64,000 nucleotides of DNA, from assembly GCA_964373575.1 (NCBI GenBank), contig CAYJVB010000001.1, positions 8,262 through 72,261 on the forward strand. Reading direction: 5' to 3'. Origin of the DNA: an uncultured archaeon (lineage in GTDB: Archaea > Aenigmatarchaeota > Aenigmatarchaeia > CG10238-14). The translations under genes were made by a program, and so were the position numbers. The notes under the pieces were generated by a model. That model was not told where the DNA came from and searched no databases. It saw only the letters and a program-made list of their open reading frames with translations. The number at the start of each line of letters is the position of its first letter. Within the stretch, counting starts at the first letter, position 1. Below, piece by piece: positions 2,580 through 60,640 of the stretch.

Positions 2580-3659
2580 TTAATCAAAAAGTAAATCCAT
2601 GTCCAAATTTTTCATCATAGAAGAAAATGGTTTAGCTAAACTAATACCAAAACTAAGCATCCAGTCAGGAACAAAATGCAAAACTCTATGAAGTATTAAA
2701 CTCCTCTTAATTCCAGGACCCAATTTCTCTTTCCACTTTTTATCATAATGCTCCTTCAAAAATCCATAGTCAAACTTATTTTTCTCAAGAGCCCTATAAC
2801 ATGCACCTGCTGCGAATTTCGCACCTATCAAACCATAAACTATTCCCCCACCAGAATATGCTTTAACCTGGCTTGCCGCATCTCCAACAAGCAAAATATT
2901 ATCAGCAGTAGAATCTTCAATCAACCCATATCTAATGACTCCACCTAACACATCCTTTTTATTAGATACATGGCTAAATCTTCTGGCAGCAAAATTTCTG
3001 AAATATTTTACAGCATCCTTCTTTGCAGCCAAACCAACTCTTGCCCAATTCTTATGTTCAGGAACTATCCATGCAAAAAAATCCGGCGTTATTTTTGATC
3101 CAAACCACAATTCGACTACATTTTCACTAAAATCACCTTTGATAGTTTCCTGATAACCGATGACATACTCTTCCGGTAGTTTTATCCCAGCTTTTTTTGC
3201 AACATCAGAATTCGGTCCATCCGCTCCCACCAAAAGTTTCGTTTCATAATTTTCTTTATTAGTCTGTACTTCTAAATGACCATCAACTCTTTTGAACCCT
3301 TCAAATCTAGTTGAAGTCATAATTTTTGCACCAGCTCTTTTAGCCCTCCTTGCAATTTCATCATCTAATCTATGTCTATCAAAAACACGAACCATGTATC
3401 TCGCTTCAAGTTCAAGATAATTTCCAGATTGCGCATAAAATCTTGCTTTGTTAACTTCATTCATAATAATTTTTTCTGGTGCTCCACTTAAAGGTAAAAT
3501 TCTAGGACTATCAATACCAGTGCATTGAACAGGATTTCCTATAGTTGGGTGTTCCTCTAAAACTAACACATCCTTTCCAGTTAAAGCCAGCAACTCAGCA
3601 GTTTTTGACCCGGATGGTCCAGCACCAACTATAATTGCATCATACATATTATTTACCAA
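2580..3659 (-). CDS. Geranylgeranyl reductase family FAD-dependent oxidoreductase (digeranylgeranylglycerophospholipid reductase-like)
   Basis: N-terminal FAD Rossmann motif MYDAIIVGAGPSGSKTAELLA and the overall GGR-family pattern. This is an archaeal membrane-lipid saturation enzyme. Confidence 0.8.
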   Translation of the reverse strand: MVNNMYDAIIVGAGPSGSKTAELLALTGKDVLVLEEHPTIGNPVQCTGIDSPRILPLSGAPEKIIMNEVNKARFYAQSGNYLELEARYMVRVFDRHRLDDEIARRAKRAGAKIMTSTRFEGFKRVDGHLEVQTNKENYETKLLVGADGPNSDVAKKAGIKLPEEYVIGYQETIKGDFSENVVELWFGSKITPDFFAWIVPEHKNWARVGLAAKKDAVKYFRNFAARRFSHVSNKKDVLGGVIRYGLIEDSTADNILLVGDAASQVKAYSGGGIVYGLIGAKFAAGACYRALEKNKFDYGFLKEHYDKKWKEKLGPGIKRSLILHRVLHFVPDWMLSFGISLAKPFSSMMKNLDMDLLFD

Positions 3660-4284
3660 AATTTCTCTTCACATTTGAGAACCATTTAATTGCTTTCATA
3701 AATTCTTTTTTAGAAAAGTCCGGCAACAAAATTTTGGTCACATAAATTTCTGAATACGCCCCCTGCCATAACATAAAATTAGATAATCTACTTTGTCCCC
3801 CTGTCCTTATGAAAAGATCTACAGGCGTTTGTACCAAAAGGTTATTTTCAATATCCTTTTCAGTTACCTCTATCTTACCAACTTCCATCATTTTTTTTGC
3901 AACCTTCTTGAAAGCCTCAAGCAATTCAAATTTACCTCCATAATTAACCATAATATTTAAGATTCTTTTTTGGTGCTTTGCAGTGCTTCTCATTATCTTG
4001 CCCATTAATCTAAAGAGTTTTCGAGGCAATTTCTCAATATCACCAATGAACCTAACTTTAATCTGATATTTTTCTAATAATGATTTAGTTTCATTCTTTT
4101 CCCATTTGCTGAGAAATTCATAATAAAGTTTGTATAATTCCACTACTTCCCTCTTCGGTCTTTTAGATATATTCTCAGTTGAGCCTATCCATACGGAAAT
4201 TTGTGGAATTTTAAGATCAAGACATAACTTTACAAAATTATCCACAGCTTCTGCTCCCTTTCTATGGCCTTTCCACGAAGCCAA
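3649..4284 (-). CDS. uppS: UPP-synthase-family cis-isoprenyl transferase. The TTG-started ORF lacks the catalytic N-terminal motif, which lies upstream behind an in-frame TAA (see findings).
   Basis: RRWAEQRGL...GHRKGAEAV matches the UPPS region DGNRRWA..RGL..GH.AG, and C-terminal features are conserved. It overlaps the downstream GGR gene by 11 nt. Confidence 0.65.
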   Translation of the reverse strand: MASWKGHRKGAEAVDNFVKLCLDLKIPQISVWIGSTENISKRPKREVVELYKLYYEFLSKWEKNETKSLLEKYQIKVRFIGDIEKLPRKLFRLMGKIMRSTAKHQKRILNIMVNYGGKFELLEAFKKVAKKMMEVGKIEVTEKDIENNLLVQTPVDLFIRTGGQSRLSNFMLWQGAYSEIYVTKILLPDFSKKEFMKAIKWFSNVKRNFGK

Positions 4285-4372
4285 ACCTCTTTGTTCAGCC
4301 CATCTCCTATATACGGGATCTTAGAAGATCTTTCCATCAGGAATTAAGGCAATATGATTCGGAATAACTAAA

Positions 4373-5278
4373 TTATCTAATGTCAAATTTATACCACCCC
4401 ACTTTAATCCTTTTTGCTATTTTAGATTTTACAAATAAATTTAAATACCCCAACAATGTGTTTCTATGAAATACAATTTGATATTTTTGTTCTATGTTAT
4501 CTTTTATGCTTTTAAAATTTATTTTATCTGGATAAGAGTTTCGCAGTTGATTATAAATTTCCTTTAAGAATGGTAATTTTGAGTGTGTTTGTTCGGGAAA
4601 CAATTTCATTAACCTATCTATATCTAATTTTTCACCTTTTTTAATGACTTTCAGTTTTCTCTTCTTTGGTCCATCCAAAATATTCATGAAAAAGTCAGCA
4701 GATCTACTACTAAAGCCGTATTTCCATCCAGTAGACCATTTTGTGATTTGGTATCTAAATTTTCTAATATGAATCTCCTCTTTTTTAAGAATTGAGATAA
4801 TCTGGTCGTACAATTTTCTGCTTTTGGTTGAAAATTCTATTGTTCCATCTATTTTAACAGTACCATCGAATATCAACAATCCTGAAATAAAAGCTAATTT
4901 ATGTTCTCTAGTATTATTAAGAATCTGACTTGGTACGGAAACTGTAGTTGATTTTTTGCCATAAGGAAATTCTAAACTATGAAAATATTGGACTAAGATT
5001 TTATTTCCAATGCGATAACGATGCCATTTTCTATGTGACTCAATTGAACCTTTCTTTTTTATTATAGATTTTATCCATTCTGATGCAAGAAAAATGTTTT
5101 CTTTCCATCCATCTGCAATCTCAAAATAGTATGACGAAGCTGGATAGCCGTTCCAAATTTTATTTTGTTTGTATATAGTTCCATCAGCTGCCAAAGCACC
5201 GCACAGTTTACTTATTGTTATACCATTCTTATTATTAGGGATAAAATTATTCTTGAATTCTATAGTATTATTGTACAC
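4373..5278 (-). CDS. Free-standing double-motif LAGLIDADG homing-endonuclease-like protein
   Basis: Two LAGLIDADG-type motifs about 95 aa apart (LCGALAADGTI and FISGLLIFDGTV). The product is basic and Lys-rich. It is not embedded in a host ORF or in an rRNA/tRNA intron. Confidence 0.55.
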   Translation of the reverse strand: MYNNTIEFKNNFIPNNKNGITISKLCGALAADGTIYKQNKIWNGYPASSYYFEIADGWKENIFLASEWIKSIIKKKGSIESHRKWHRYRIGNKILVQYFHSLEFPYGKKSTTVSVPSQILNNTREHKLAFISGLLIFDGTVKIDGTIEFSTKSRKLYDQIISILKKEEIHIRKFRYQITKWSTGWKYGFSSRSADFFMNILDGPKKRKLKVIKKGEKLDIDRLMKLFPEQTHSKLPFLKEIYNQLRNSYPDKINFKSIKDNIEQKYQIVFHRNTLLGYLNLFVKSKIAKRIKVGWYKFDIR

Positions 5279-13787: not shown

Positions 13788-15269
13788 TTAACACGCCAAT
13801 CCATTCATATATGAAACTAGAGGACCATTATTTCCTGCATCTCCAGTTAAATCCGGATAAATTTCAAATGAACCCCAACCAAACTGCCCATAATGAAATA
13901 TAGCTGCGCCAACAACATAGCTATCTTCCTTCAACTTGGAATCATACCATTTAAGGTCCTCAAGATATGAGCTCGCGTCAGTATGAGCCCTCCAACCACA
14001 ATTATCTTCACAACCTCCAGAATCAATTCCAGTTTCAGTTATTACCAAAGGAATTTCTAAATTATTTGGTTGCAAATATTGTCTGTAAACTTTTCTATAT
14101 CTCAGTGTAAGCCATCCAGTGTCTCCATCCAAATTACATTGCATTGAAGGTGAACAATATTCATGTAAGCTAAGATATCCACCATTTTGTTTTGCAGCCT
14201 CTAATGCAGGCTTAAATTCAGACCATAAAGCCAAATCAGGGTTACCAGCTGAGAACGACCCAATACACGCCTTTCTACTTATACTGTTCAGCAATTTTAT
14301 TCTTTCAACCTCAAAAGAACTCATCCACTGCATTTCTTGAGCTGTATGACCTGGAACAGGTTCATTATATCCTTCCCAACAATCTACACTATTAGTAGAC
14401 TCAATAGTACCTCTATTTCTATTAAACCAATCTCTAGCCCTTTGTGCAGCATCTCCATCAGTTGGCTGTTGTCCAGCGGATTCAACAATTCTTCCAACAA
14501 TAAATGTGCATGGTGACGTCTGTTTTATTTCCTCAGCCTTCCCATAATCGCTATTAAGTTTAACAACAGATGGTTTTGTTGAATCAACAAATTCCATCAC
14601 ACCAGATTTTTGAAATTGTGTCTGAATTCCAAGCTTACTGCGACACGCTAAATTCAAATCACAAGTTCTTGGAGGCATTGTCGTTGTACTTCCAGGCAAT
14701 GTAGTCGTCGTTTCCTCATCCCCACCATAATTGTCAGTAGGTACATGAATAGGTGGTGGCGGGGGTTTAGACAATTCCAAGTTTACAGCATTACTAGTTC
14801 TCTTGAAAGTAACCTCATACTCCTTCACCAACGGCCTTCCAAGTATCTTGTTCACCGCAATCTGAAAATCATTATAATCCTCTAGTGTTCCCATATGCGG
14901 CAACCTAGTCCTGCATCTCAGCTTACTGCATCTATTAAACTGCTCCGACTTAAACTGGAAGCATAGATAATCTCCCTCACTTAACTTATCACTCTTAATG
15001 AGATCGCTAACAGTCGGCAATACATCATCAGGTTTGTCAGTTGTATAAAACACACGTACTTGACTTGGTATCAATAAATCAAAGGTCAAAAAATTTCCCG
15101 GCTCTTGAGAGCATACAGAATCTAAATCTTCGTTTATATTGGAAAATTGCTCAAGAAAAGTTTGTTTTTGAGATTCAATGACAAACGATGCTATTAACTG
15201 ATAACCTATTGAAAAAACCATTAATCCTAATACAATCCCACCAACAGCTAGTAAAATAGTGTCAGCCAT
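13788..15269 (-). CDS. Membrane-anchored, pilin-like N-domain fused through a Thr/Pro linker to a clan GH-A (GH5-like) glycoside hydrolase
   Basis: N-terminus MADTILLAVGGIVLGLMVFSIGY. Linker TTTTLPGSTTTMPP. The catalytic-type motifs WEGYNEP (acid/base NEP) and LVITETGIDS (nucleophile TE.G) are typical of GH5/clan A. Confidence 0.5.
   Translation of the reverse strand: MADTILLAVGGIVLGLMVFSIGYQLIASFVIESQKQTFLEQFSNINEDLDSVCSQEPGNFLTFDLLIPSQVRVFYTTDKPDDVLPTVSDLIKSDKLSEGDYLCFQFKSEQFNRCSKLRCRTRLPHMGTLEDYNDFQIAVNKILGRPLVKEYEVTFKRTSNAVNLELSKPPPPPIHVPTDNYGGDEETTTTLPGSTTTMPPRTCDLNLACRSKLGIQTQFQKSGVMEFVDSTKPSVVKLNSDYGKAEEIKQTSPCTFIVGRIVESAGQQPTDGDAAQRARDWFNRNRGTIESTNSVDCWEGYNEPVPGHTAQEMQWMSSFEVERIKLLNSISRKACIGSFSAGNPDLALWSEFKPALEAAKQNGGYLSLHEYCSPSMQCNLDGDTGWLTLRYRKVYRQYLQPNNLEIPLVITETGIDSGGCEDNCGWRAHTDASSYLEDLKWYDSKLKEDSYVVGAAIFHYGQFGWGSFEIYPDLTGDAGNNGPLVSYMNGLAC
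14811..14982. repeat. Copy 1 of a ~171-bp perfect direct repeat. Copy 2 is at 15342..15512.
   Basis: Compared base by base: acctcatactccttcaccaacggcc ... agataatctccctcact is identical in both copies. The flanks diverge. Confidence 0.85.
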
Positions 15270-34557: not shown

Positions 34558-35166
34558 TCAATACCGTCTATATTTTTCTTTAAGTTTCGTAAATTTATCA
34601 TCTTTTTTCTTTAGTCTCCAAACATAAATAACAACAGCACTTACAATCCCAACAATTGAAAATATAATGAGAGTTTTCATGTTACCGGGTTTTATAATTG
34701 TTGTGGTAGTCGTTATAGATACACATTCTTTCGGGCAAATAAGTTCAGATTCTCCCCTATCAGATTCACAAATATTATTCTCATTGCAGATGTAACCCGA
34801 AAGCTCAACCTCTTTTATAACCGTATCATTATGCAAAAATCTGATAGTTCTATATTCATCATTCCACGGTATTCTATGATACGCTCGCGAATAATTCACT
34901 TCACCAACTTCAAACTTATAGAAAACGACAGGAATCGTCAACGCCACTAAAGTGTTATTTCCTTCTCCTCTAATAAATAACTGATACTCCTCCGTTCCAG
35001 GTGTATAAAATACTGTTCCATTAGAATATTTTATATCAACTATCTCAATAGAATCATCTATGTATATAACATAATTCAAAATCAAAATCGGTTCTGCATA
35101 TGATATTTGTAACAAAAACAACAAACTAAATAGCAGACTAACAAAAACAATGATAAATTTAGTCAC
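34558..35166 (-). CDS. Secreted protein with a C-terminal TM anchor (202 aa); function unknown
   Basis: Sec signal MTKFIIVFVSLLFSLLFLLQISYA. C-terminal TTTTIIKPGNMKTLIIFSIVGIVSAVVIYVWRLKKKDDK. Confidence 0.45.
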   Translation of the reverse strand: MTKFIIVFVSLLFSLLFLLQISYAEPILILNYVIYIDDSIEIVDIKYSNGTVFYTPGTEEYQLFIRGEGNNTLVALTIPVVFYKFEVGEVNYSRAYHRIPWNDEYRTIRFLHNDTVIKEVELSGYICNENNICESDRGESELICPKECVSITTTTTIIKPGNMKTLIIFSIVGIVSAVVIYVWRLKKKDDKFTKLKEKYRRY

Positions 35167-37642
35167 AATAACCAGCCTCTCTAATTCTTACCAATATAGA
35201 ATTATAACCTTCCGAGCCAAATTTAACCGGATTTCCCACCATAATATAATTACCTTGACTATCTCTATACATATTTCCCCCACCACCCATTATATCTGTA
35301 TCATATGGTGGAGAGTTACCACCTATTTTCTTTCCACATGTTCCAAGATCGCAAGCAGTGTTATCAACACTGCAATCTGTATCACATTTATCATCTGGAC
35401 CTATTCCATTATCTAATGGATATGGGTTCCCACAACTAGAAAAAGGTTGAGATTCTTTCAGAATACCAAAATTCTTAAAACGAACATTTTGTCCTTCCCA
35501 AGTAAATCTATCATATTCATCGCATAACTTAAATTTATGTCCAATTTCATGCGCAGGACAAGTTCTATCAAGACCTTCAGGTAAACCACCGAAGCACATA
35601 GCAAAAGGTAACACCATATCTGCAAACCCATTTACTATAGGATCATCACTAAGTGCAAATACTAAATCATGATCATTTAAACCCATATTTTCAACACACT
35701 GTAAAACTTCTTGTTCGCAAATGTCCCATGTAGAATCATAATCACTTAAATCGGGGCATTGACAATTCTGATCTAAAATCCTTATGTCAATTCCATTTCT
35801 GCATTCTCTGAAAGGAGATTCTTCCAAAAATGTATTCATCCTATCTTGAGCTCTTTTTCTATATGCATTCATGTCGTCATAATTCACAGCAACAACATAA
35901 ATTCTATAACGATTAGCTAATTTTATTATATTTCCAGTATATTCAGCTTTATTAGAGTTACCCGCCTTATCGCCAGCAATTGTTACAAGTTTGTATTCCC
36001 CCACTCGGTTCAATATAAAGGAGCCAGTACAACTTACAAGGAAACTTACTCTATTATGACCTATTGATGCAGCTAAATCCAAACTATCACAATCTAGATC
36101 TTGACTATAATACCGAGCTCCATTTTGTTCTATGTACATTTCTATAGAATCTTTATCAAGGTTCACATCTTCATCATAGATTAGAGCTTTAGCAATAATA
36201 GGCGAGTTTGTGTAACCAAAAGTTGGTATAGTATACGCATCTATGACAGGCAAGTTATCGTCCGGTAATATTGTAACAGAAGTTTCAATATTATTTTCCT
36301 TTGTAGTTTCAAATCCAGACTGACTTCTGCAGGAAATGTAGTATTTTTTCTCTTCCACCATTCCATTGTTTAGGCCAAAACATAGTATATAATCCGAAAA
36401 TGTTGTTGTATTAGGGTATAAATTATCTTGAGTGACGAGATTGAAATTATCATAATTGGGGCAATCCAAAGTCATCTCATCGAAATTTAGATCTCTATCC
36501 GATATCCTACAAATTGAATTTTCTGAAGGAATAACCCGAATCATAGGATTTAATTGTTTTGTGCTGGAAGGACTATCAATAGATGCAAAACATTTAACAT
36601 CGGGTTTATTATCATATGTAATCTCTTCTTCACAAACTGGACAACTTTTTGTTGTCAAGACATTATAAGTACAAGATTTGTCAGAAGCAAAACACCCATA
36701 AAGCCTTCTTTCTGCTGTATAATCATTGGCACAAAACCACCCATTACTAGATGTACATGATTCAGGACACGAAATTATTTCTCTGTCTTTACACCCAGGA
36801 TATTCAGATAGGTCATAATCATAATAAGCTGGATTATCTTGCCAACTTATTTTATCATCGTCATTCAAATCACAATCATATGGAAAACAGTTATCTGCTC
36901 CTGAGTCATAAGTATCGTCAAATATGTTATAATCTAACTTATCCCTTATACCATCCACATTTATATCAGGACAAGCACCTATAGGACAATTTGAGAATTC
37001 TGAAGCCAATTTTCCTAAGTTATCTTCAACCCATTGACGGTCTTCTTCATCTACAATTCCATTATTATCAAAATCACAATCAGTTACCCATGCAGCAGCA
37101 CAATACGACTCCCCTAAACTATATCTAAGATCATCAACATCTTTCTGATCTATTAACCCATCTCTATTTCCGTCAGGACAATCAAATTCCAATTTTGGTT
37201 CAATAGTTAGACTTATAACATTACTCTCAAAATCAAGCTTCTCTTCTCTTACGTTGTATCCTCCAACAAGTCTAAGCTGATAATCACCACTTTCTTTTAT
37301 ACAGTCTGAAATTCTGAATTCTCCCTTTATGGCTCTTTCTCCTTTGACAATCACGAAATCTCCAATTTTATAAATTTTACAAAATTTCCATTCTTCATTA
37401 GAACTTGCCTTTCTATACTGAACTCCAAGCTGATAATCTTTTTCTGCCAAAAAAGCTTCAATTCTGTCAGTGAAATCAAATTCAAAAGTAAAAAAATCTT
37501 TCAGACTACCTTTTGTTCTTAACCCAAGAGTTGGTTCTGCAGCTTGCAGTGTATCTAATAGAATAACTGTTACAAGAATCGTAGCTAACAACACAACACA
37601 AAATTTTGTTTTATTCACGTAATCCTCCTCTAAATGTTTCAA
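35159..37642 (-). CDS. Secreted zinc metalloprotease (HExxH) with multiple Ca2+-binding Dx[DN]xDG (thrombospondin-type-3/dockerin-like) repeats
   Basis: Signal peptide. Repeats DCPDGNRDGLIDQKDVDD, DCDFDNNGIVDEED and CPDINVDGIRDKLD. C-terminal HEIGHKFKLCDEYD zincin motif. Confidence 0.55.
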   Translation of the reverse strand: MKHLEEDYVNKTKFCVVLLATILVTVILLDTLQAAEPTLGLRTKGSLKDFFTFEFDFTDRIEAFLAEKDYQLGVQYRKASSNEEWKFCKIYKIGDFVIVKGERAIKGEFRISDCIKESGDYQLRLVGGYNVREEKLDFESNVISLTIEPKLEFDCPDGNRDGLIDQKDVDDLRYSLGESYCAAAWVTDCDFDNNGIVDEEDRQWVEDNLGKLASEFSNCPIGACPDINVDGIRDKLDYNIFDDTYDSGADNCFPYDCDLNDDDKISWQDNPAYYDYDLSEYPGCKDREIISCPESCTSSNGWFCANDYTAERRLYGCFASDKSCTYNVLTTKSCPVCEEEITYDNKPDVKCFASIDSPSSTKQLNPMIRVIPSENSICRISDRDLNFDEMTLDCPNYDNFNLVTQDNLYPNTTTFSDYILCFGLNNGMVEEKKYYISCRSQSGFETTKENNIETSVTILPDDNLPVIDAYTIPTFGYTNSPIIAKALIYDEDVNLDKDSIEMYIEQNGARYYSQDLDCDSLDLAASIGHNRVSFLVSCTGSFILNRVGEYKLVTIAGDKAGNSNKAEYTGNIIKLANRYRIYVVAVNYDDMNAYRKRAQDRMNTFLEESPFRECRNGIDIRILDQNCQCPDLSDYDSTWDICEQEVLQCVENMGLNDHDLVFALSDDPIVNGFADMVLPFAMCFGGLPEGLDRTCPAHEIGHKFKLCDEYDRFTWEGQNVRFKNFGILKESQPFSSCGNPYPLDNGIGPDDKCDTDCSVDNTACDLGTCGKKIGGNSPPYDTDIMGGGGNMYRDSQGNYIMVGNPVKFGSEGYNSILVRIREAGYCD

Positions 37643-54806: not shown

Positions 54807-55081
54807 GCAAGGAGCACATCCTTGGTGGATATGACTCTACGATTAAGTTTATCCGAGATCTTTCCTCCACCTTCTGAACTCGTGAGCACTGAAGCATATA
54901 CCTTATGGCTGCTCGGTTCCCCGACTGACCAGTTTCGATATACATACAGTCCCAGGAGGGAAGGCTTCTCAGTCCAGATTCCGGGCTTAATCATGAAACC
55001 ATACCGCCCTTGAACTTCAACCCCCGCTGTAGCTCACTTCGGGTTACAGGGAAGAGCTAACTCCCCGGTCTAGCTCCTTGC
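54807..55081 (+). ncRNA. GC-rich structured ncRNA (~275 nt) with base-paired termini; candidate SRP (7S) RNA, or alternatively RNase P RNA
   Basis: A ~50%-GC island in a ~30%-GC genome. The 5-prime GCAAGGAGC pairs perfectly with the 3-prime GCTCCTTGC, like helix 1 of archaeal SRP RNA or P1 of RNase P. There are internal helices (GGUGGA/UCCACC) and CCGGGCUUA- and GGAAGG-containing internal loops. No ORF is plausible across it. Confidence 0.4.
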
Positions 55082-58923: not shown

Positions 58924-59205
58924 TTATTTTTTAAAAGCCGTTTCGAACTCTTTTCTCAATTCCTTCAATTCTACTTGAACCCTATTTGCACTATCCCTCA
59001 AAGCCTTTTGTGGTTGTGCCCTGCCCTTCATCTTTACAAAAACTTTGGGTTCTGCCATGTACGGATGTTCTTTTACGCTAGCAGATTCTTCAACATTTTC
59101 ATCATTCCACAGCTCATCCCTGATCAAATTTGCAAATCCAATAGTATCCCCTTTCAGCTCAACAAGAATAGTGTTCCCATCACTTTTGACCTCCCTTACT
59201 TCCAT
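58924..59205 (-). CDS. rpoL: DNA-directed RNA polymerase subunit L (Rpo11)
   Basis: MEVREVKSDGNTILVELKGDTIGFANLIRDEL...HPYMAEPKVFVK is the RpoL/Rpb11 fold signature. Confidence 0.75.
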   Translation of the reverse strand: MEVREVKSDGNTILVELKGDTIGFANLIRDELWNDENVEESASVKEHPYMAEPKVFVKMKGRAQPQKALRDSANRVQVELKELRKEFETAFKK

Positions 59206-59870
59206 TATTTCACCTCAATTACAAAAAGATCAACATCAAACTCCACTTTAGGTTTTCTGTGGAACCTAAACATATGTGGTATCCTAAATTTATAAGTGAT
59301 AATACTTTTAACCTTTCCGTTTCTTGCTTCTACAAAGTCCCTGATAAAATTTCTAGACTTTTCATAGCTCCGATGCAGGGTATATATATTCTTAGCCACT
59401 TCCAGAGCCTTCTTTAAAAAAGGCCTATCAGCATGCTTGTTTTGAATGCCAAAAGGAGGATTTTGTATCACAGTATCAACATTCTCATCCCATTCATTAA
59501 TGTCAGAATTGACAAAATCGATTTTTATTTGTTCTTGGGTCATTTTTCTGATAATTTCAACATTTTCTCTAGCAGTTTTCAAGGCATTTTCATCTACGTC
59601 TAGTGCAACAACCTTTTTTGCCCCCAATAAAGAAGCTCCTATCGCTAACCTTCCACTCCCACATCCAAAGTCAGCAACAACCCTGTTTTTTATATGTTCA
59701 GAAATATACGCAAGATTCAAAATCTCAGCAGCCAAATCTCCGGTTATAGTATACTGCTCTAGACTAGGCTTCGGGTTAAATTGTTCCTTTAATCCAGATA
59801 ATATAATTTCCAATTCCTTCTTCATCCCCATTCTATCAGAAATAATAATCAAATAAAGGTTATAAACCAA
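59205..59870 (-). CDS. SAM-dependent N6-adenine-type (NPPF motif) RNA methyltransferase, METTL5/HemK-like
   Basis: VADFGCGSGRLAIGA (motif I) and VIQNPPFG (motif IV). Confidence 0.7.
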   Translation of the reverse strand: MVYNLYLIIISDRMGMKKELEIILSGLKEQFNPKPSLEQYTITGDLAAEILNLAYISEHIKNRVVADFGCGSGRLAIGASLLGAKKVVALDVDENALKTARENVEIIRKMTQEQIKIDFVNSDINEWDENVDTVIQNPPFGIQNKHADRPFLKKALEVAKNIYTLHRSYEKSRNFIRDFVEARNGKVKSIITYKFRIPHMFRFHRKPKVEFDVDLFVIEVK

Positions 59871-59872
59871 AC

Positions 59873-60640
59873 TCAGAGAACTCTCCTAAGAAGCTCTAAA
59901 ATTTTATCAAGAATTAATGTAATCCATGCAGTTGGCTTAGTTTTGAGCAAGTGTGAATAATCACCTTCTTTTATTCCCAAGTTCTTACCTACAGCCGAAT
60001 CTGTTTTTTCAAGAACTTCAATAACATCTTCATAGCTGTATGATATCTCAGCATAGTATGAATTGGAACATTTTCTAGTCACATTTCTTTCATTTGAACA
60101 AGGGAAATAAAACTTGCATGGTTGTGTTATTGTCCAAAATTTTTCACCCTTCTCTAGTTTGTTATCCACTTTGCTCTCAAAAGGTAAATGGCACTTGAAA
60201 TAATCCTCTCCCATTGTCTGATGAACAGGAACATAGCTATCAGTAAAATAATGGGCTGCAACACCAACATAAAACGAGAAATTACTAATAGTAGCATTAT
60301 TCAATGCCTCCTCGAAATTTTCCATTGCAGGACAATCAAAATAATTATCTTCCATGCACTCCTGAAAATCAGTAAAATATGGTAATTCACCAGCATTTGT
60401 TCTGTTTACATCGATTACTTTACACTGCTTAGCAACATAGCAATAATGATTTCTCGAATCTTTATACTCTTTGTCAGGAGCAAGACACCCTCTCAGAAAT
60501 TCATCTCTATCTAATCTTTTATTTAGTTCTATATTAGAATTGTAAATGTGTTCACAAAAAAAAGAATGTGTTTCCCATCCCCAGCTATAGACAGCAGGGA
60601 TAGTTAGCAAGAATGCAGCCAAAATTGATAATAATTTCAT
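59873..60640 (-). CDS. Secreted zinc-dependent phospholipase C / S1-P1 nuclease-family protein
   Basis: Signal peptide, then a mature N-terminus WGWETH. The Trp1/His6 zinc-ligand signature is typical of the PLC/P1 nuclease fold. His/Asp-rich. Confidence 0.45.
   Translation of the reverse strand: MKLLSILAAFLLTIPAVYSWGWETHSFFCEHIYNSNIELNKRLDRDEFLRGCLAPDKEYKDSRNHYCYVAKQCKVIDVNRTNAGELPYFTDFQECMEDNYFDCPAMENFEEALNNATISNFSFYVGVAAHYFTDSYVPVHQTMGEDYFKCHLPFESKVDNKLEKGEKFWTITQPCKFYFPCSNERNVTRKCSNSYYAEISYSYEDVIEVLEKTDSAVGKNLGIKEGDYSHLLKTKPTAWITLILDKILELLRRVL

Follow-up and report, generated by a model that had tools for sequence, protein, structure and literature searches.

The uppS gene on the minus strand of the 64,000-nucleotide stretch of archaeal DNA analyzed here (the window) is interrupted, after HIALIPDG, by a 21-nt insert that carries an in-frame TAA. 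Judged from its sequence, this insert is very likely a bulge-helix-bulge (BHB) intron of the archaeal tRNA type, which lies in the pre-mRNA and is cut by the tRNA-splicing enzyme. In the proposed mechanism, the intron would fold with the adjoining exon 1 and exon 2 sequences into a canonical hBHBh' structure, EndA would release the 21-nt intron (4331..4311) by cutting between the second and third nucleotides of each 3-nt bulge, and an RNA ligase (RtcB in archaea) would then join the exons. The joined mRNA would encode a full-length, catalytically complete UppS with the motif DGNRRWA. A tiny spliced element was among the explanations offered in an earlier note on this DNA, and it is the one favored by the BHB fold, the splice register, the recurrence of the insert, and the covariation described below.

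When the frame of the ORF at 3649..4284 (minus strand) is read upstream, its translation is GINLTLDNLVIPNHIALIPDGKIF, a stop, and DPVYRRWAEQRGLASWKGH, exactly as the earlier note had written it. The sequence upstream of the insert constitutes exon 1, and uppS probably starts at the TTG of this exon, 7 nt downstream of a Shine-Dalgarno-like GGGGTGG (4400..4394). The coordinates of the gene, of the predicted intron, and of the structural elements discussed below are collected in Table 1.

Table 1. Features of the interrupted uppS locus and its neighbor, in window coordinates
Feature	Position	Strand	Description
uppS exon 1	4332..4386	-	55 nt; probable TTG start; MTLDNLVIPNHIALIPDG plus first base (A) of the Asn codon
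BHB mini-intron (predicted)	4311..4331	-	21 nt, AGAUCUUCUAAGAUCCCGUAU; phase 1; holds TAA 4323..4321
uppS exon 2	3649..4310	-	662 nt with the TAA stop; begins with AU (rest of the Asn codon) and RRWAEQRGL...
Outer helix h, 5' strand	4338..4343	-	UUCCUG, exon 1; partner 4309..4304; 6 bp
Outer helix h, 3' strand	4304..4309	-	UAGGAG, exon 2
Central helix H, 5' strand	4334..4337	-	AUGG, exon 1 end: Asp wobble base and GG of Gly
Central helix H, 3' strand	4313..4316	-	CCGU, intron
5' bulge	4331..4333	-	AAA; predicted cut between 4332 and 4331
3' bulge	4310..4312	-	AUA; predicted cut between 4311 and 4310
Inner helix h'	4317..4330	-	GAUCU/AGAUC, 5 bp; loop UCUA
LAGLIDADG homing-endonuclease-like gene, free-standing	4373..5278	-	301 aa; upstream of uppS exon 1; stops 11 nt into the uppS start region

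An unconstrained minimum free energy fold of positions 4285-4365 (minus strand) consists of a 6-bp helix, an AUA bulge, a 4-bp helix, an AAA bulge, a 5-bp helix, and a UCUA loop. This structure contains the 4-bp central helix between two opposite-strand 3-nt bulges by which the BHB motif is defined (PMC10485636), and with an outer helix of 6 bp and an inner helix of 5 bp it has the strict hBHBh' form. The pairs of the central helix are A4337-U4313, U4336-G4314, G4335-C4315, and G4334-C4316. The inverted repeat that the earlier note had reported is present (GAUCU/AGAUC, 4330..4326 and 4321..4317) and forms the inner helix, so the hairpin it described is real, but that description missed both the full bulge-helix-bulge, which includes exon sequence, and the link of the insert to the neighboring LAGLIDADG gene. 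No ribozyme or other RNA family was found at the insert by Rfam at the gathering threshold, and inserts of the 13-40 nt seen in this gene and its relatives are too small to be group I or group II introns.

Strict BHB motifs are not enriched in the window (2 on both strands, compared with ∼1.55 expected from dinucleotide shuffles); the motif alone therefore proves nothing, and the case rests on register, recurrence, and covariation. What is improbable is the exact position and length of the motif, which are set independently by protein homology; for any one position and length, the chance is roughly 1.55/(128,000 × 27), or ∼4e-7. A permissive scan of the window for genes that could be repaired by BHB excision returned thousands of false positives, and under strict settings uppS was the only such gene (6/6 outer pairs, 6 inner pairs, restored motif). 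Three further candidates from the strict scan that have long ORFs on both sides (59898..59849, 59227..59184, and 35175..35142) look like ordinary gene boundaries, one of them with a TAA, a Shine-Dalgarno sequence, and an ATG.

The structure of ARMAN-2 EndA with RNA indicates that the second bulged nucleotide attacks the phosphate next to it through its 2'-OH, which places the cut between bulge nucleotides 2 and 3 (PMC12397907). Applied to the window, this rule removes exactly 21 nt (4331..4311) and restores the conserved Asn of DGNRRWA. The predicted exon junction is CCTGATGGAA followed by ATAGGAGATGGGC, and the predicted mature mRNA reads ...GAU GGA A/AU AGG AGA UGG... at this point, where the slash marks the junction. 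Deletion of a 21-nt segment had been suggested in the earlier note; its length was correct and removal of 4332..4312 does give HIALIPDG-YRRWA, but these boundaries are one base off, and the conserved Asn is lost. The predicted spliced product of 238 aa covers positions 1-219 of the 219 in PF01255 (E=1.1e-64, 218.5 bits) and aligns without a gap across the junction to the UppS structures 7jli and 6acs (IPNHIALIPDGNRRWAEQRGL compared with IPEHIAIIMDGNGRWAKKRSL). Only after splicing does the gene encode a full-length PF01255 domain with the N-terminal D-G-N-x-R-W-A motif. At the position of the junction, the intron-less genes of the close relatives L011 and L012 read GAY GGY AAY MGA AGR TGG. The D-G-N-x-R-W-A loop of UppS (D26/N28/R30 in Escherichia coli) is, we assume, the diphosphate/Mg2+ site.

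An ORF with a TTG start at 4284 does exist downstream, and it would be conceivable that this ORF yields a truncated UppS, or one of two polypeptides that reassemble, with the insert as an intergenic spacer. The 211-aa product of this ORF, however, misses D-G-N-R-R-W-A, the segment aligned to DGNGRWA of solved UppS structures; the earlier note had recognized that it would lack the essential Asp. In addition, the first available start in relatives varies, from a position after RRWA to one 40 residues downstream, and exon 1 spans just 18 codons and shares the Asn codon with exon 2. We consider a truncated or split enzyme extremely unlikely.

The same interruption is found in other archaea. A pattern scan that was limited by exon coding only, and that left the insert unconstrained, identified 35 distinct interrupted archaeal uppS sequences; with four more found via the neighboring gene, the total is 39. 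The 35 come from Micrarchaeota, Aenigmatarchaeota, and 'Nanoarchaeum sp.' MAGs and from metagenomes, and the uppS genes of the 39 are only 35-100% identical. The interruption always lies at the same phase-1 position, and the insert is 13-40 nt long. Cutting between bulge nucleotides 2 and 3 computationally restores DGNRRWA and the reading frame in 39/39 relatives, and the spliced ORF is intact (221-228 codons) wherever the contig of the relative is complete. The same scan returned 6 distinct bacterial sequences, in which uppS is uninterrupted and has no BHB. In several relatives the motif is relaxed: the central helix keeps three of its four pairs, the outer helix contains an A.A mismatch, or internal loops replace a clean 5' bulge; such motifs would need a broad-specificity EndA in those organisms.

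Recurrence also bears on whether the 21 nt exist in the genome at all, since a short, palindrome-containing insert in metagenome-derived sequence could be an assembly or sequencing artefact, as the earlier note had considered. The identical 21-nt insert is present in an independent assembly from a different sequencing run (L010, Logan ERR4904391), and dozens of unrelated NCBI, JGI, ENA, and Logan assemblies carry homologous inserts of differing sequence and length at that codon. These observations leave an artefact with a negligible probability.

Translational recoding, another of the options raised previously, would produce UppS from the unspliced message by readthrough of the TAA or by ribosomal bypassing (hopping) over the insert. 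Insert length is divisible by 3 in the uppS of the window and in 7/35 sequences from the pattern scan, and a hairpin beside a stop codon recalls the bypass in T4 gene 60. In the other 28 of these 35 sequences, however, this length is not divisible by 3, which puts the exons in different frames and excludes readthrough. Readthrough would also place 7 extra residues in the invariant DGNxRWA loop, the Asn codon is split (A/AU), and TAA is a standard stop here, being the commonest one in the window (it ends 33 of the 52 ORFs that have 150 codons or more), which bears out the earlier remark that it is used as a normal stop. For bypassing, a matching pair of take-off and landing codons was not found by eye, with GGA recurring only out of frame, and this process has no need of conserved BHB geometry such as the 3' bulge and the exon-intron helix. 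We regard recoding as very improbable.

The predicted structure is preserved by compensatory change. Pairing in the predicted register amounts to ∼91-92% for the central helix (32 distinct sequences), 81% for the outer helix, and 82% for the inner helix, compared with 23-63% when the partner strand is slid. In a structure test, 83.2% of positions were paired versus 70.3 ± 1.2 in shuffled sequences (0/500) and 29-46% in slid registers, and the covariation score was 0.385 versus 0.179 when shuffled (0/500) and 0.02-0.14 when slid; the significance of these shuffles, and that of the Fisher tests that follow, is overstated because the sequences are phylogenetically related. Double-sided changes occur at 5 pairs, among them all three anchored inner-helix pairs, which are compensatory in relatives. 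The Asp wobble base and its intron partner are U-A in 13 sequences, C-G in 20, U.G in 2, and C.A in 0 (Fisher 7e-8), and in the outer helix the Pro wobble base and the first nucleotide of Arg are G-C in 17 and U-A in 5 (Fisher 2e-4). Helix covariation thus runs partly through synonymous exon positions. In one pair of relatives (L049 and L050), near-identical introns differ by one double compensatory change. Based on these comparisons, the insert shows the conserved structure with compensatory changes in homologs that is expected of a BHB element.

The same data speak to the proposal that a recent micro-insertion has pseudogenised uppS, leaving a dead or decaying gene with an incidental hairpin. 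The unspliced frame is broken by the TAA, and public gene calls in relatives are N-terminally truncated: in the top 120 hits there are seven clusters of truncated UppS (P0002, P0017, and P0063 among them) that lack the catalytic Asp. Each of these truncated calls, however, hides the same interruption, which recurs in all 39 distinct sequences with an intact ORF on every complete contig. The spliced uppS ORFs have pN of 0.18-0.47 versus a saturated pS of 0.65-0.99, and pN so far below pS indicates strong purifying selection and that the interrupted genes are not pseudogenes. Exon 1, which would be useless if the gene were dead, remains conserved in relatives as H-[IV]-A-x-I-x-D-G, compensatory exon-insert changes maintain the structure, and no second uppS copy is present within the 64-kb window. 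A pseudogenising insertion, which the earlier note had also entertained, is accordingly an exceedingly improbable explanation.

The splicing of uppS in vivo is presumably performed by EndA and RtcB, whose presence we infer because the host is archaeal and carries an intron-containing tRNA. The window contains an archaeal SRP RNA, and its tRNA-Thr has a 33-nt intron with a 3' bulge, AUA, like that of the uppS intron (both RNAs identified with Rfam); because of this intron, the tRNA was missed by ARAGORN.

The gene directly upstream of uppS exon 1 encodes a protein with a match to Pfam LAGLIDADG_3 (PF14528, E=6e-7). Foldseek searches with its AF2 model (pLDDT 90.4) matched PI-PfuI (E=7.5e-11), I-DmoI (TM 0.72-0.76 of target), and I-Tsp061I, and the best structural matches thus include two archaeal intron-encoded endonucleases, I-DmoI and I-Tsp061I. 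The invariant residues D32-G33 and D138-G139 end helices 17-32 and 124-138, so that the protein has two LAGLIDADG helices, each with a conserved acidic end, in a fold of the I-DmoI/I-CreI type. In the window this ORF lies outside the 21-nt intron and is neither intron- nor intein-encoded. Its N-terminus (..NNFIPNNKNG..), however, derives from uppS exon 1, of which it is a decayed copy that begins the reading frame exactly at the intron insertion point, and in one relative (L059) a duplication of ∼60 nt, comprising exon 1 and the 5' splice site, flanks the LAGLIDADG ORF. Together, the exon-1 remnant and this duplication suggest that the ORF once resided within the intron.

The LAGLIDADG gene directly adjoins the intron-bearing uppS on its upstream side in 10/10 lineages examined and was seen nowhere else among them, a result from loci that were mostly chosen for carrying the intron and that cover 7 of the 11 database clusters (all but P0124, P0126, P0129, and P0130). 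It is absent beside the intron-less uppS of L011 and L012 (two loci). These associations suggest, with less certainty than attaches to the BHB intron itself, that the LAGLIDADG gene is a present or former mobility partner of the uppS intron site. More tentatively, the mini-intron and the LAGLIDADG gene may form, or may recently have formed, a composite mobile element, which we rate as possible rather than probable. In such an element, the putative endonuclease would target the conserved DGNRRWA-coding site of intron-less uppS (near GAYGGNAAYMGNMGNTGG), the mini-intron, by interrupting this site, would shield the genome that carries it, in the manner of 'collaborative homing,' and the endonuclease ORF would have begun as an in-frame extension of exon 1 at the point of intron insertion. 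If true, this would be the first case of an archaeal protein-coding gene whose BHB intron is associated with a homing endonuclease, and it would give concrete support to the old speculation that short archaeal mRNA introns such as that of cbf5 arose by deletion from mobile introns that carried an ORF. With its exon-1-copy N-terminus and its place beside the intron, the I-DmoI-like gene provides a testable system for the spread and decay of enzyme-spliced introns in protein-coding genes.

A 2023 review lists only two archaeal genes, cbf5 and HVO_1309, that are spliced by the tRNA endonuclease, and states that more probably remain to be found (PMC10485636). Our literature search likewise turned up BHB splicing for cbf5 and HVO_1309 only, and returned no protein-coding BHB intron in uppS, in Micrarchaeota, or in DPANN archaea; subscription journals were poorly covered by this search, so a prior report is possible. 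With uppS as a third host gene, the range of archaeal mRNA splicing would reach far past Crenarchaeota and a single haloarchaeon, to a lipid-carrier synthesis enzyme in at least three DPANN groups, with a strict motif and with exon-intron covariation that is kept via synonymous codon choice. Because gene callers emit truncated UppS proteins without the catalytic motif, metabolic reconstructions of DPANN archaea could wrongly score the enzyme as defective. A search that combines BHB structure with homology could recover uppS and perhaps other hidden genes.

The closest known case is the cbf5 pre-mRNA intron of Crenarchaeota, a BHB-type intron of 16-44 bp for which splicing by the tRNA-splicing endonuclease was shown experimentally (Watanabe 2002; Yokobori 2009, PMC2738675). 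Like the uppS intron, it is short, lies in an archaeal protein-coding gene, is defined by a BHB, has been gained and lost patchily, and is too short to encode a protein. The two differ in host gene (an RNA pseudouridine synthase versus a lipid-carrier synthase) and in lineage (Crenarchaeota versus Aenigmatarchaeota-like, Micrarchaeota, and 'Nanoarchaeum sp.' MAGs of the DPANN). The cbf5 motif is frequently relaxed, whereas that of uppS in the window is a strict hBHBh', and cbf5 splicing is experimentally established, whereas uppS splicing is predicted. The cbf5 intron has no associated endonuclease gene, and its descent from an ORF-containing intron was only speculated upon by its authors; in contrast, the uppS intron adjoins a LAGLIDADG gene with an exon-1-derived N-terminus. 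The HVO_1309 mRNA of Haloferax volcanii is likewise an archaeal mRNA with a BHB, and in that case cleavage by EndA and spliced RNA in RNA-seq data are documented (PMC10485636); for HVO_1309, neither conservation across phyla nor a linked endonuclease gene is reported in the literature searched.

The BHB introns of archaeal rRNAs and tRNAs share their RNA motif, and presumably their enzymes, with the uppS intron. They reside in stable RNAs with no reading frame to keep, whereas the uppS cut must be exact to 1 nt to rebuild the Asn codon. Those rRNA introns that encode LAGLIDADG endonucleases (I-DmoI and I-Tsp061I) carry the ORF within the intron, whereas the uppS-associated ORF precedes exon 1 and is not part of the 21-nt intron. 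In this arrangement the uppS locus resembles the collaborative-homing introns of phages, in which an ORF-less intron occupies a highly conserved site of an essential gene next to a free-standing homing-endonuclease gene, and in which the target of the endonuclease is the intron insertion site, so that the intron protects its own genome. The phage introns, however, are self-splicing group I ribozymes that are paired with non-LAGLIDADG endonucleases, whereas the uppS intron of 13-40 nt is predicted to be an enzyme-spliced BHB element of cellular archaea.

Translation of the minus strand upstream of the ORF at 3649..4284, in the frame of that ORF, gives ...TLDNLVIPNHIALIPDGKIF*DPVYRRWAEQRGLASWKGH..., and the frame of the undecaprenyl-diphosphate synthase gene (uppS) is therefore interrupted by an in-frame TAA, as an earlier note on this DNA had stated. 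TAA is a normal stop here, as had also been assumed, and is the commonest one in the window (33 of 52 long ORFs). That note also held that the downstream ORF alone would lack the essential Asp; a product initiated at TTG 4284 would be without the DGNRRWA motif, which we take to be part of the UppS catalytic site, and for that reason a truncated enzyme from this start is rejected as an explanation. No second uppS copy is present within the window, which has a G+C content of 35% and is archaeal, since an Rfam search of it identified an archaeal signal recognition particle (SRP) RNA.

When the minus-strand RNA from 4285-4365 was folded without constraints (RNAfold), the predicted structure of the insert and its flanks was a canonical hBHBh' substrate, the strict bulge-helix-bulge (BHB) form with both flanking helices, of the archaeal RNA-splicing endonuclease (see the table). 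In the crystal structure of a Micrarchaeota (ARMAN-2) endonuclease-RNA complex, the attacking group is the 2'-OH of the second bulged nucleotide and its target the adjoining phosphate (PMC12397907), which places the cut between nucleotides 2 and 3 of the bulge. Applied computationally to both strands, this rule excises exactly 21 nt, window 4331..4311 (AGAUCUUCUAAGAUCCCGUAU), and the predicted junction, GAU GGA A + AU AGG AGA UGG, encodes D-G-N-R-R-W-A. The spliced product of 238 amino acids spans positions 1-219 of 219 of the Pfam UppS profile (PF01255, E=1.1e-64) and shows no gap at the junction when aligned with solved UppS structures (IPNHIALIPDGNRRWAEQRGL versus IPEHIAIIMDGNGRWAKKRSL). 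The earlier proposal that a 21-nt deletion restores the motif thus had the right length and the wrong boundaries, which lay one base too far left and yield DGYRRWA with loss of the conserved Asn. We conclude that the insert is very probably a BHB mini-intron in the minus-strand uppS pre-mRNA.

Features of the interrupted uppS gene, its neighbors, and other elements (window positions unless a locus of a relative is named)
Feature	Position	Strand	Basis
In-frame TAA of insert	4323..4321	minus	translation
Outer helix, 6 bp	4343..4338 with 4309..4304	minus	RNAfold
3-nt bulge AUA	4312..4310	minus	RNAfold
Central helix, exactly 4 bp	4337..4334 with 4316..4313	minus	RNAfold
3-nt bulge AAA, strand opposite AUA bulge	4333..4331	minus	RNAfold
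Inner helix, 5 bp	4330..4326 with 4321..4317	minus	RNAfold
UCUA loop closing inner helix		minus	RNAfold
LAGLIDADG gene, window	4373..5278	minus	
LAGLIDADG gene, L007	842-1726		
LAGLIDADG gene, L026	2834-3711		
LAGLIDADG gene, L035, L049, L050, L055-L060			
SD-like GGGGTGG	4394..4400	minus	
Geranylgeranyl-reductase-like gene	2580..3659	minus	
tRNA-Thr(UGU), 107 nt	2304-2410	plus	Rfam
SRP RNA	54808-55080		Rfam
Second strict BHB-like motif	14023..14049	minus	
Weaker BHB-like motifs	59849..59898, 59184..59227, 35142..35175	minus	

The motif is by itself no evidence, because the number of strict BHB motifs in the window (outer and inner helices of no fewer than 6 and 5 bp, respectively, and an intron of 14-40 nt) matches that in dinucleotide shuffles (2 observed, mean of 1.55 in shuffles). 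The uppS motif gains its weight from protein homology, which sets its position and length without reference to RNA structure; the probability that such a motif would occur at a specified position with a specified length is on the order of 4e-7, a rough figure from approximately 1.55/(128,000 x 27). The only other strict motif in the window is of like quality (outer helix 6 bp, inner helix 5 bp, 27-nt "intron"). Weaker motifs across three junctions of long same-strand ORFs look like ordinary gene boundaries, as at least one of them holds a stop, an SD, and an ATG.

A protein search with the spliced UppS placed the gene among Aenigmarchaeota-like DPANN archaea. The majority of homologues are full length with an uninterrupted DGNRRWA (for example, cluster P0001, 82% identity), and seven clusters (P0002, P0017, P0020, P0063, P0090, P0101, and P0110) are public, automated gene calls that are N-terminally truncated (196-222 amino acids) and without this motif, which could mislead metabolic reconstructions of DPANN archaea. 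The P0020 call begins within the intron (MFPVDRRWA...). DNA was compared for 6 of the seven truncated clusters, the comparison with relatives that the earlier note had called for. The identical 21 nt is present in a 99% identical locus from a separate sequencing run (L010), which rules out the assembly or sequencing artefact considered in that note; dozens of independent assemblies also carry inserts. In the lineages of the other five truncated clusters (L001-L009, 62-69% identical), exon 1 (...H[IV]ALIPDG) lies close upstream and is interrupted at the same site by 21, 20, 17, 20, and 19 nt, and its frame differs from that of exon 2 in 4 of the 5.

By scanning genome and metagenome collections for the exon coding pattern H-[IV]-A-x-I-x-D-G-N...N-R-R-W-A with a free gap of 12-40 nt and an unconstrained insert, we identified 35 unique sequences from archaea, which come from MAGs of Micrarchaeota (10), Aenigmatarchaeota (2), and "Nanoarchaeum sp." (1), from MAGs labelled only as uncultured archaea (2), and otherwise from metagenome contigs. 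Cutting between bulge nucleotides 2 and 3 rebuilds DGNRRWA in all archaeal cases, and the spliced ORF is intact on every complete contig (221-228 codons counted from the His codon). The inserts are 13-40 nt long and in 28 of 35 the length is not divisible by three, so stop readthrough or another translational recoding event, one option in the earlier note, is excluded as a general explanation; in the window, readthrough would put seven residues into the invariant DGNxRWA loop. As negative controls, the six distinct bacterial matches (L016, of which L030 is a duplicate, L019, L020, L033, L036, and L047) have uninterrupted genes and no BHB. Four more lineages (L055-L060), whose exon sequences are outside the reach of the scan pattern, were found through the neighboring gene and are interrupted at the same site.

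Pairing in these relatives was assessed at positions anchored solely on the protein-defined junctions. The central helix was paired in 90.7% of cells in register and in 23-39% when the 3' partner was slid by 1-3 columns; the corresponding values were 81.0 and 27-63% for the outer helix and 81.9 and 23-43% for the first three pairs of the inner helix. In a formal count over an alignment of 32 distinct junction-anchored strings (A2), 83.2% of cells were paired compared with 70.3±1.2% in 500 shuffles, and the covariation score was 0.385 compared with 0.179 (0.02-0.14 in slid registers); neither observed value was reached by any shuffle. Cells changed on both sides numbered 57 versus 25 in shuffles, and all three inner-helix pairs have such double-sided changes. 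Two covarying pairs include synonymous exon positions. One joins the wobble base of the Asp codon to its partner in the intron (U-A 13, C-G 20, U.G 2, C.A 0; Fisher 7e-8), and the other joins the wobble base of the Pro codon to position 1 of the Arg codon (G-C 17, CCG...CGG; U-A 5, CCU...AGG; p 2e-4). The p-values here are optimistic because the sequences share ancestry, a problem from which the slid-register control is free. The near-identical introns of close relatives L049 and L050 differ by a double compensatory change (GAU...CCAU versus GAC...CCGU).

These results also bear on the pseudogenising micro-insertion suggested in the earlier note. If uppS were dead and the insert incidental, neither the 18 codons of exon 1 nor a compensating RNA structure would also have been retained; pN is 0.18-0.47 despite saturated synonymous sites (pS 0.65-0.99), and no sequence has a second defect, so this explanation is rejected. 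Ribosomal bypass over the insert is rejected as well, as there are no in-frame matching take-off and landing codons and bypass leaves the conserved 3' bulge and the exon-intron helix unexplained. Rfam finds no ribozyme or group I/II intron at the site, and the inserts are far too short for one. Among the options listed in the earlier note, the tiny spliced element is the one borne out. These data demonstrate the anatomy, exact register, recurrence, covariation, and selection of the uppS intron. Its presence requires at least 12 changes by Fitch parsimony on a neighbor-joining tree of 138 uppS sequences, and it is often gained or lost, as is the cbf5 intron.

In the proposed pathway, the uppS pre-mRNA would fold locally, the splicing endonuclease EndA would cut both bulges, and an RtcB-type ligase would join the exons. 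The organism must have a working BHB splicing system because its tRNA-Thr(UGU) contains a 33-nt intron at position 37/38, with the same 3' bulge AUA as the uppS intron and a slightly relaxed BHB (G.A in the central helix). This tRNA has an Rfam match of 61 bits and is missed by ARAGORN. Some relatives have relaxed uppS motifs (3 of 4 central pairs, internal loops, or 13-15-nt bulge-helix-loop forms), consistent with the reported diversity of DPANN endonucleases, many of which are said to have loops tied to broad substrate specificity (PMC5829648). The shortest inserts, L024 (13 nt) and L044 (15 nt), have no inner helix and place the 5' splice site within the hairpin loop; these forms would need a broad-specificity endonuclease.

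The 3' end of the neighboring ORF, which encodes 301 amino acids, falls just within the uppS start region. Its product matches Pfam LAGLIDADG_3, and a confident AlphaFold model (pLDDT 90.4, pTM 0.88) finds its best structural matches among homing endonucleases of archaea: PI-PfuI, I-DmoI (TM 0.72-0.76 across the full length of I-DmoI), and I-Tsp061I, the last annotated as an "archaeal intron-encoded homing endonuclease"; the product looks like an I-DmoI-like homing endonuclease. Asp-32 and Asp-138, the acidic ends of both LAGLIDADG helices, are invariant in the family, a very small one with 11 clusters in a database of 5.8 billion proteins. In 10 of 10 lineages examined (six from the uppS set and four chosen by the LAGLIDADG protein alone; 4 clusters were not covered), the gene is immediately followed, in the same orientation, by an intron-bearing uppS, and it is absent in both intron-less relatives compared, L011 (82% identity) and L012 (71%). 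The order [M29][M24][LAGLIDADG][uppS][GGR] in L055 differs from [M29][M24][uppS][GGR] in L001 by the clean gain or loss of this one gene. In L026 (2816-3720, an Aenigmatarchaeota MAG), the homologue is broken up into two ORFs that overlap in different frames, which may reflect a decaying gene, a sequencing error, or another interruption. The SD-like GGGGTGG, which precedes the TTG start of uppS by 7 nt, falls inside the codons of the LAGLIDADG protein's G-W-Y motif (Gly-294 and Tyr-296 invariant), whose conservation may be partly due to a ribosome-binding role for uppS.

The N termini of the LAGLIDADG proteins are variously decayed copies of uppS exon 1 (alignment A1): cluster P0127 begins ...KRDIHVALIPDGK|TGITISKL, an exon 1 copy followed by TGITISKL, and the window protein holds ...NNFIPNNKNGITISKL. 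In L059, the ORF lies between the two copies (about 17-80 and 920-990) of a direct repeat of ∼60 nt that takes in the 5' region, exon 1, and 5' splice site of uppS; with the lone 3' splice site, the upstream copy could still fold into a weaker BHB (-15.3 versus -20.3 kcal/mol in matched constructs), which makes a choice between two 5' splice sites conceivable. In L055-L057 (2501-3439) and L058 (2501-3436), the LAGLIDADG ORF continues in frame across the downstream exon 1 and has its stop codon inside the mini-intron; splicing there would delete the endonuclease stop and could fuse the endonuclease to UppS or switch products. Pairwise identities of the endonuclease (51-67%) show hardly any correlation with those of uppS (40-77%; Spearman 0.29, p=0.14), and movement is an easier explanation than strict co-inheritance because the endonuclease is more conserved than UppS between the deepest clades. 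Simple co-transfer fits poorly, since intron type tracks the host clade and not the endonuclease. Tentatively, these observations on the neighboring gene, taken together, suggest that it arrived where the intron is inserted, extending exon 1 in frame, and that the intron and endonuclease could be, or could once have been, a composite mobile element.

A gene for a geranylgeranyl-reductase-like FAD protein follows uppS in the window, L001, L003, L007, L012, L055, and nearly all relatives, and a trans-polyprenyl synthase gene also follows it in L003; uppS and these downstream genes are a conserved isoprenoid-lipid gene cluster.

We found no paper linking a protein-coding BHB intron to uppS or undecaprenyl, Micrarchaeota, or DPANN archaea in a search of incomplete coverage, and an earlier report is possible. 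The proposed pairing of the uppS intron with its putative endonuclease resembles the collaborative homing of phage group I introns, in which the site of intron insertion is the target of a free-standing endonuclease (PMC3984707). The closest known case to the intron itself is that of cbf5 in Crenarchaeota: at 16-44 bp it has no room for a nuclease gene, its BHB is often relaxed, and its distribution is patchy (PMC2738675); HVO_1309 of Haloferax is a second. Compared with these, the uppS intron has a new host gene, new phyla, and an unusually clean motif, and its kind is rare but already known.
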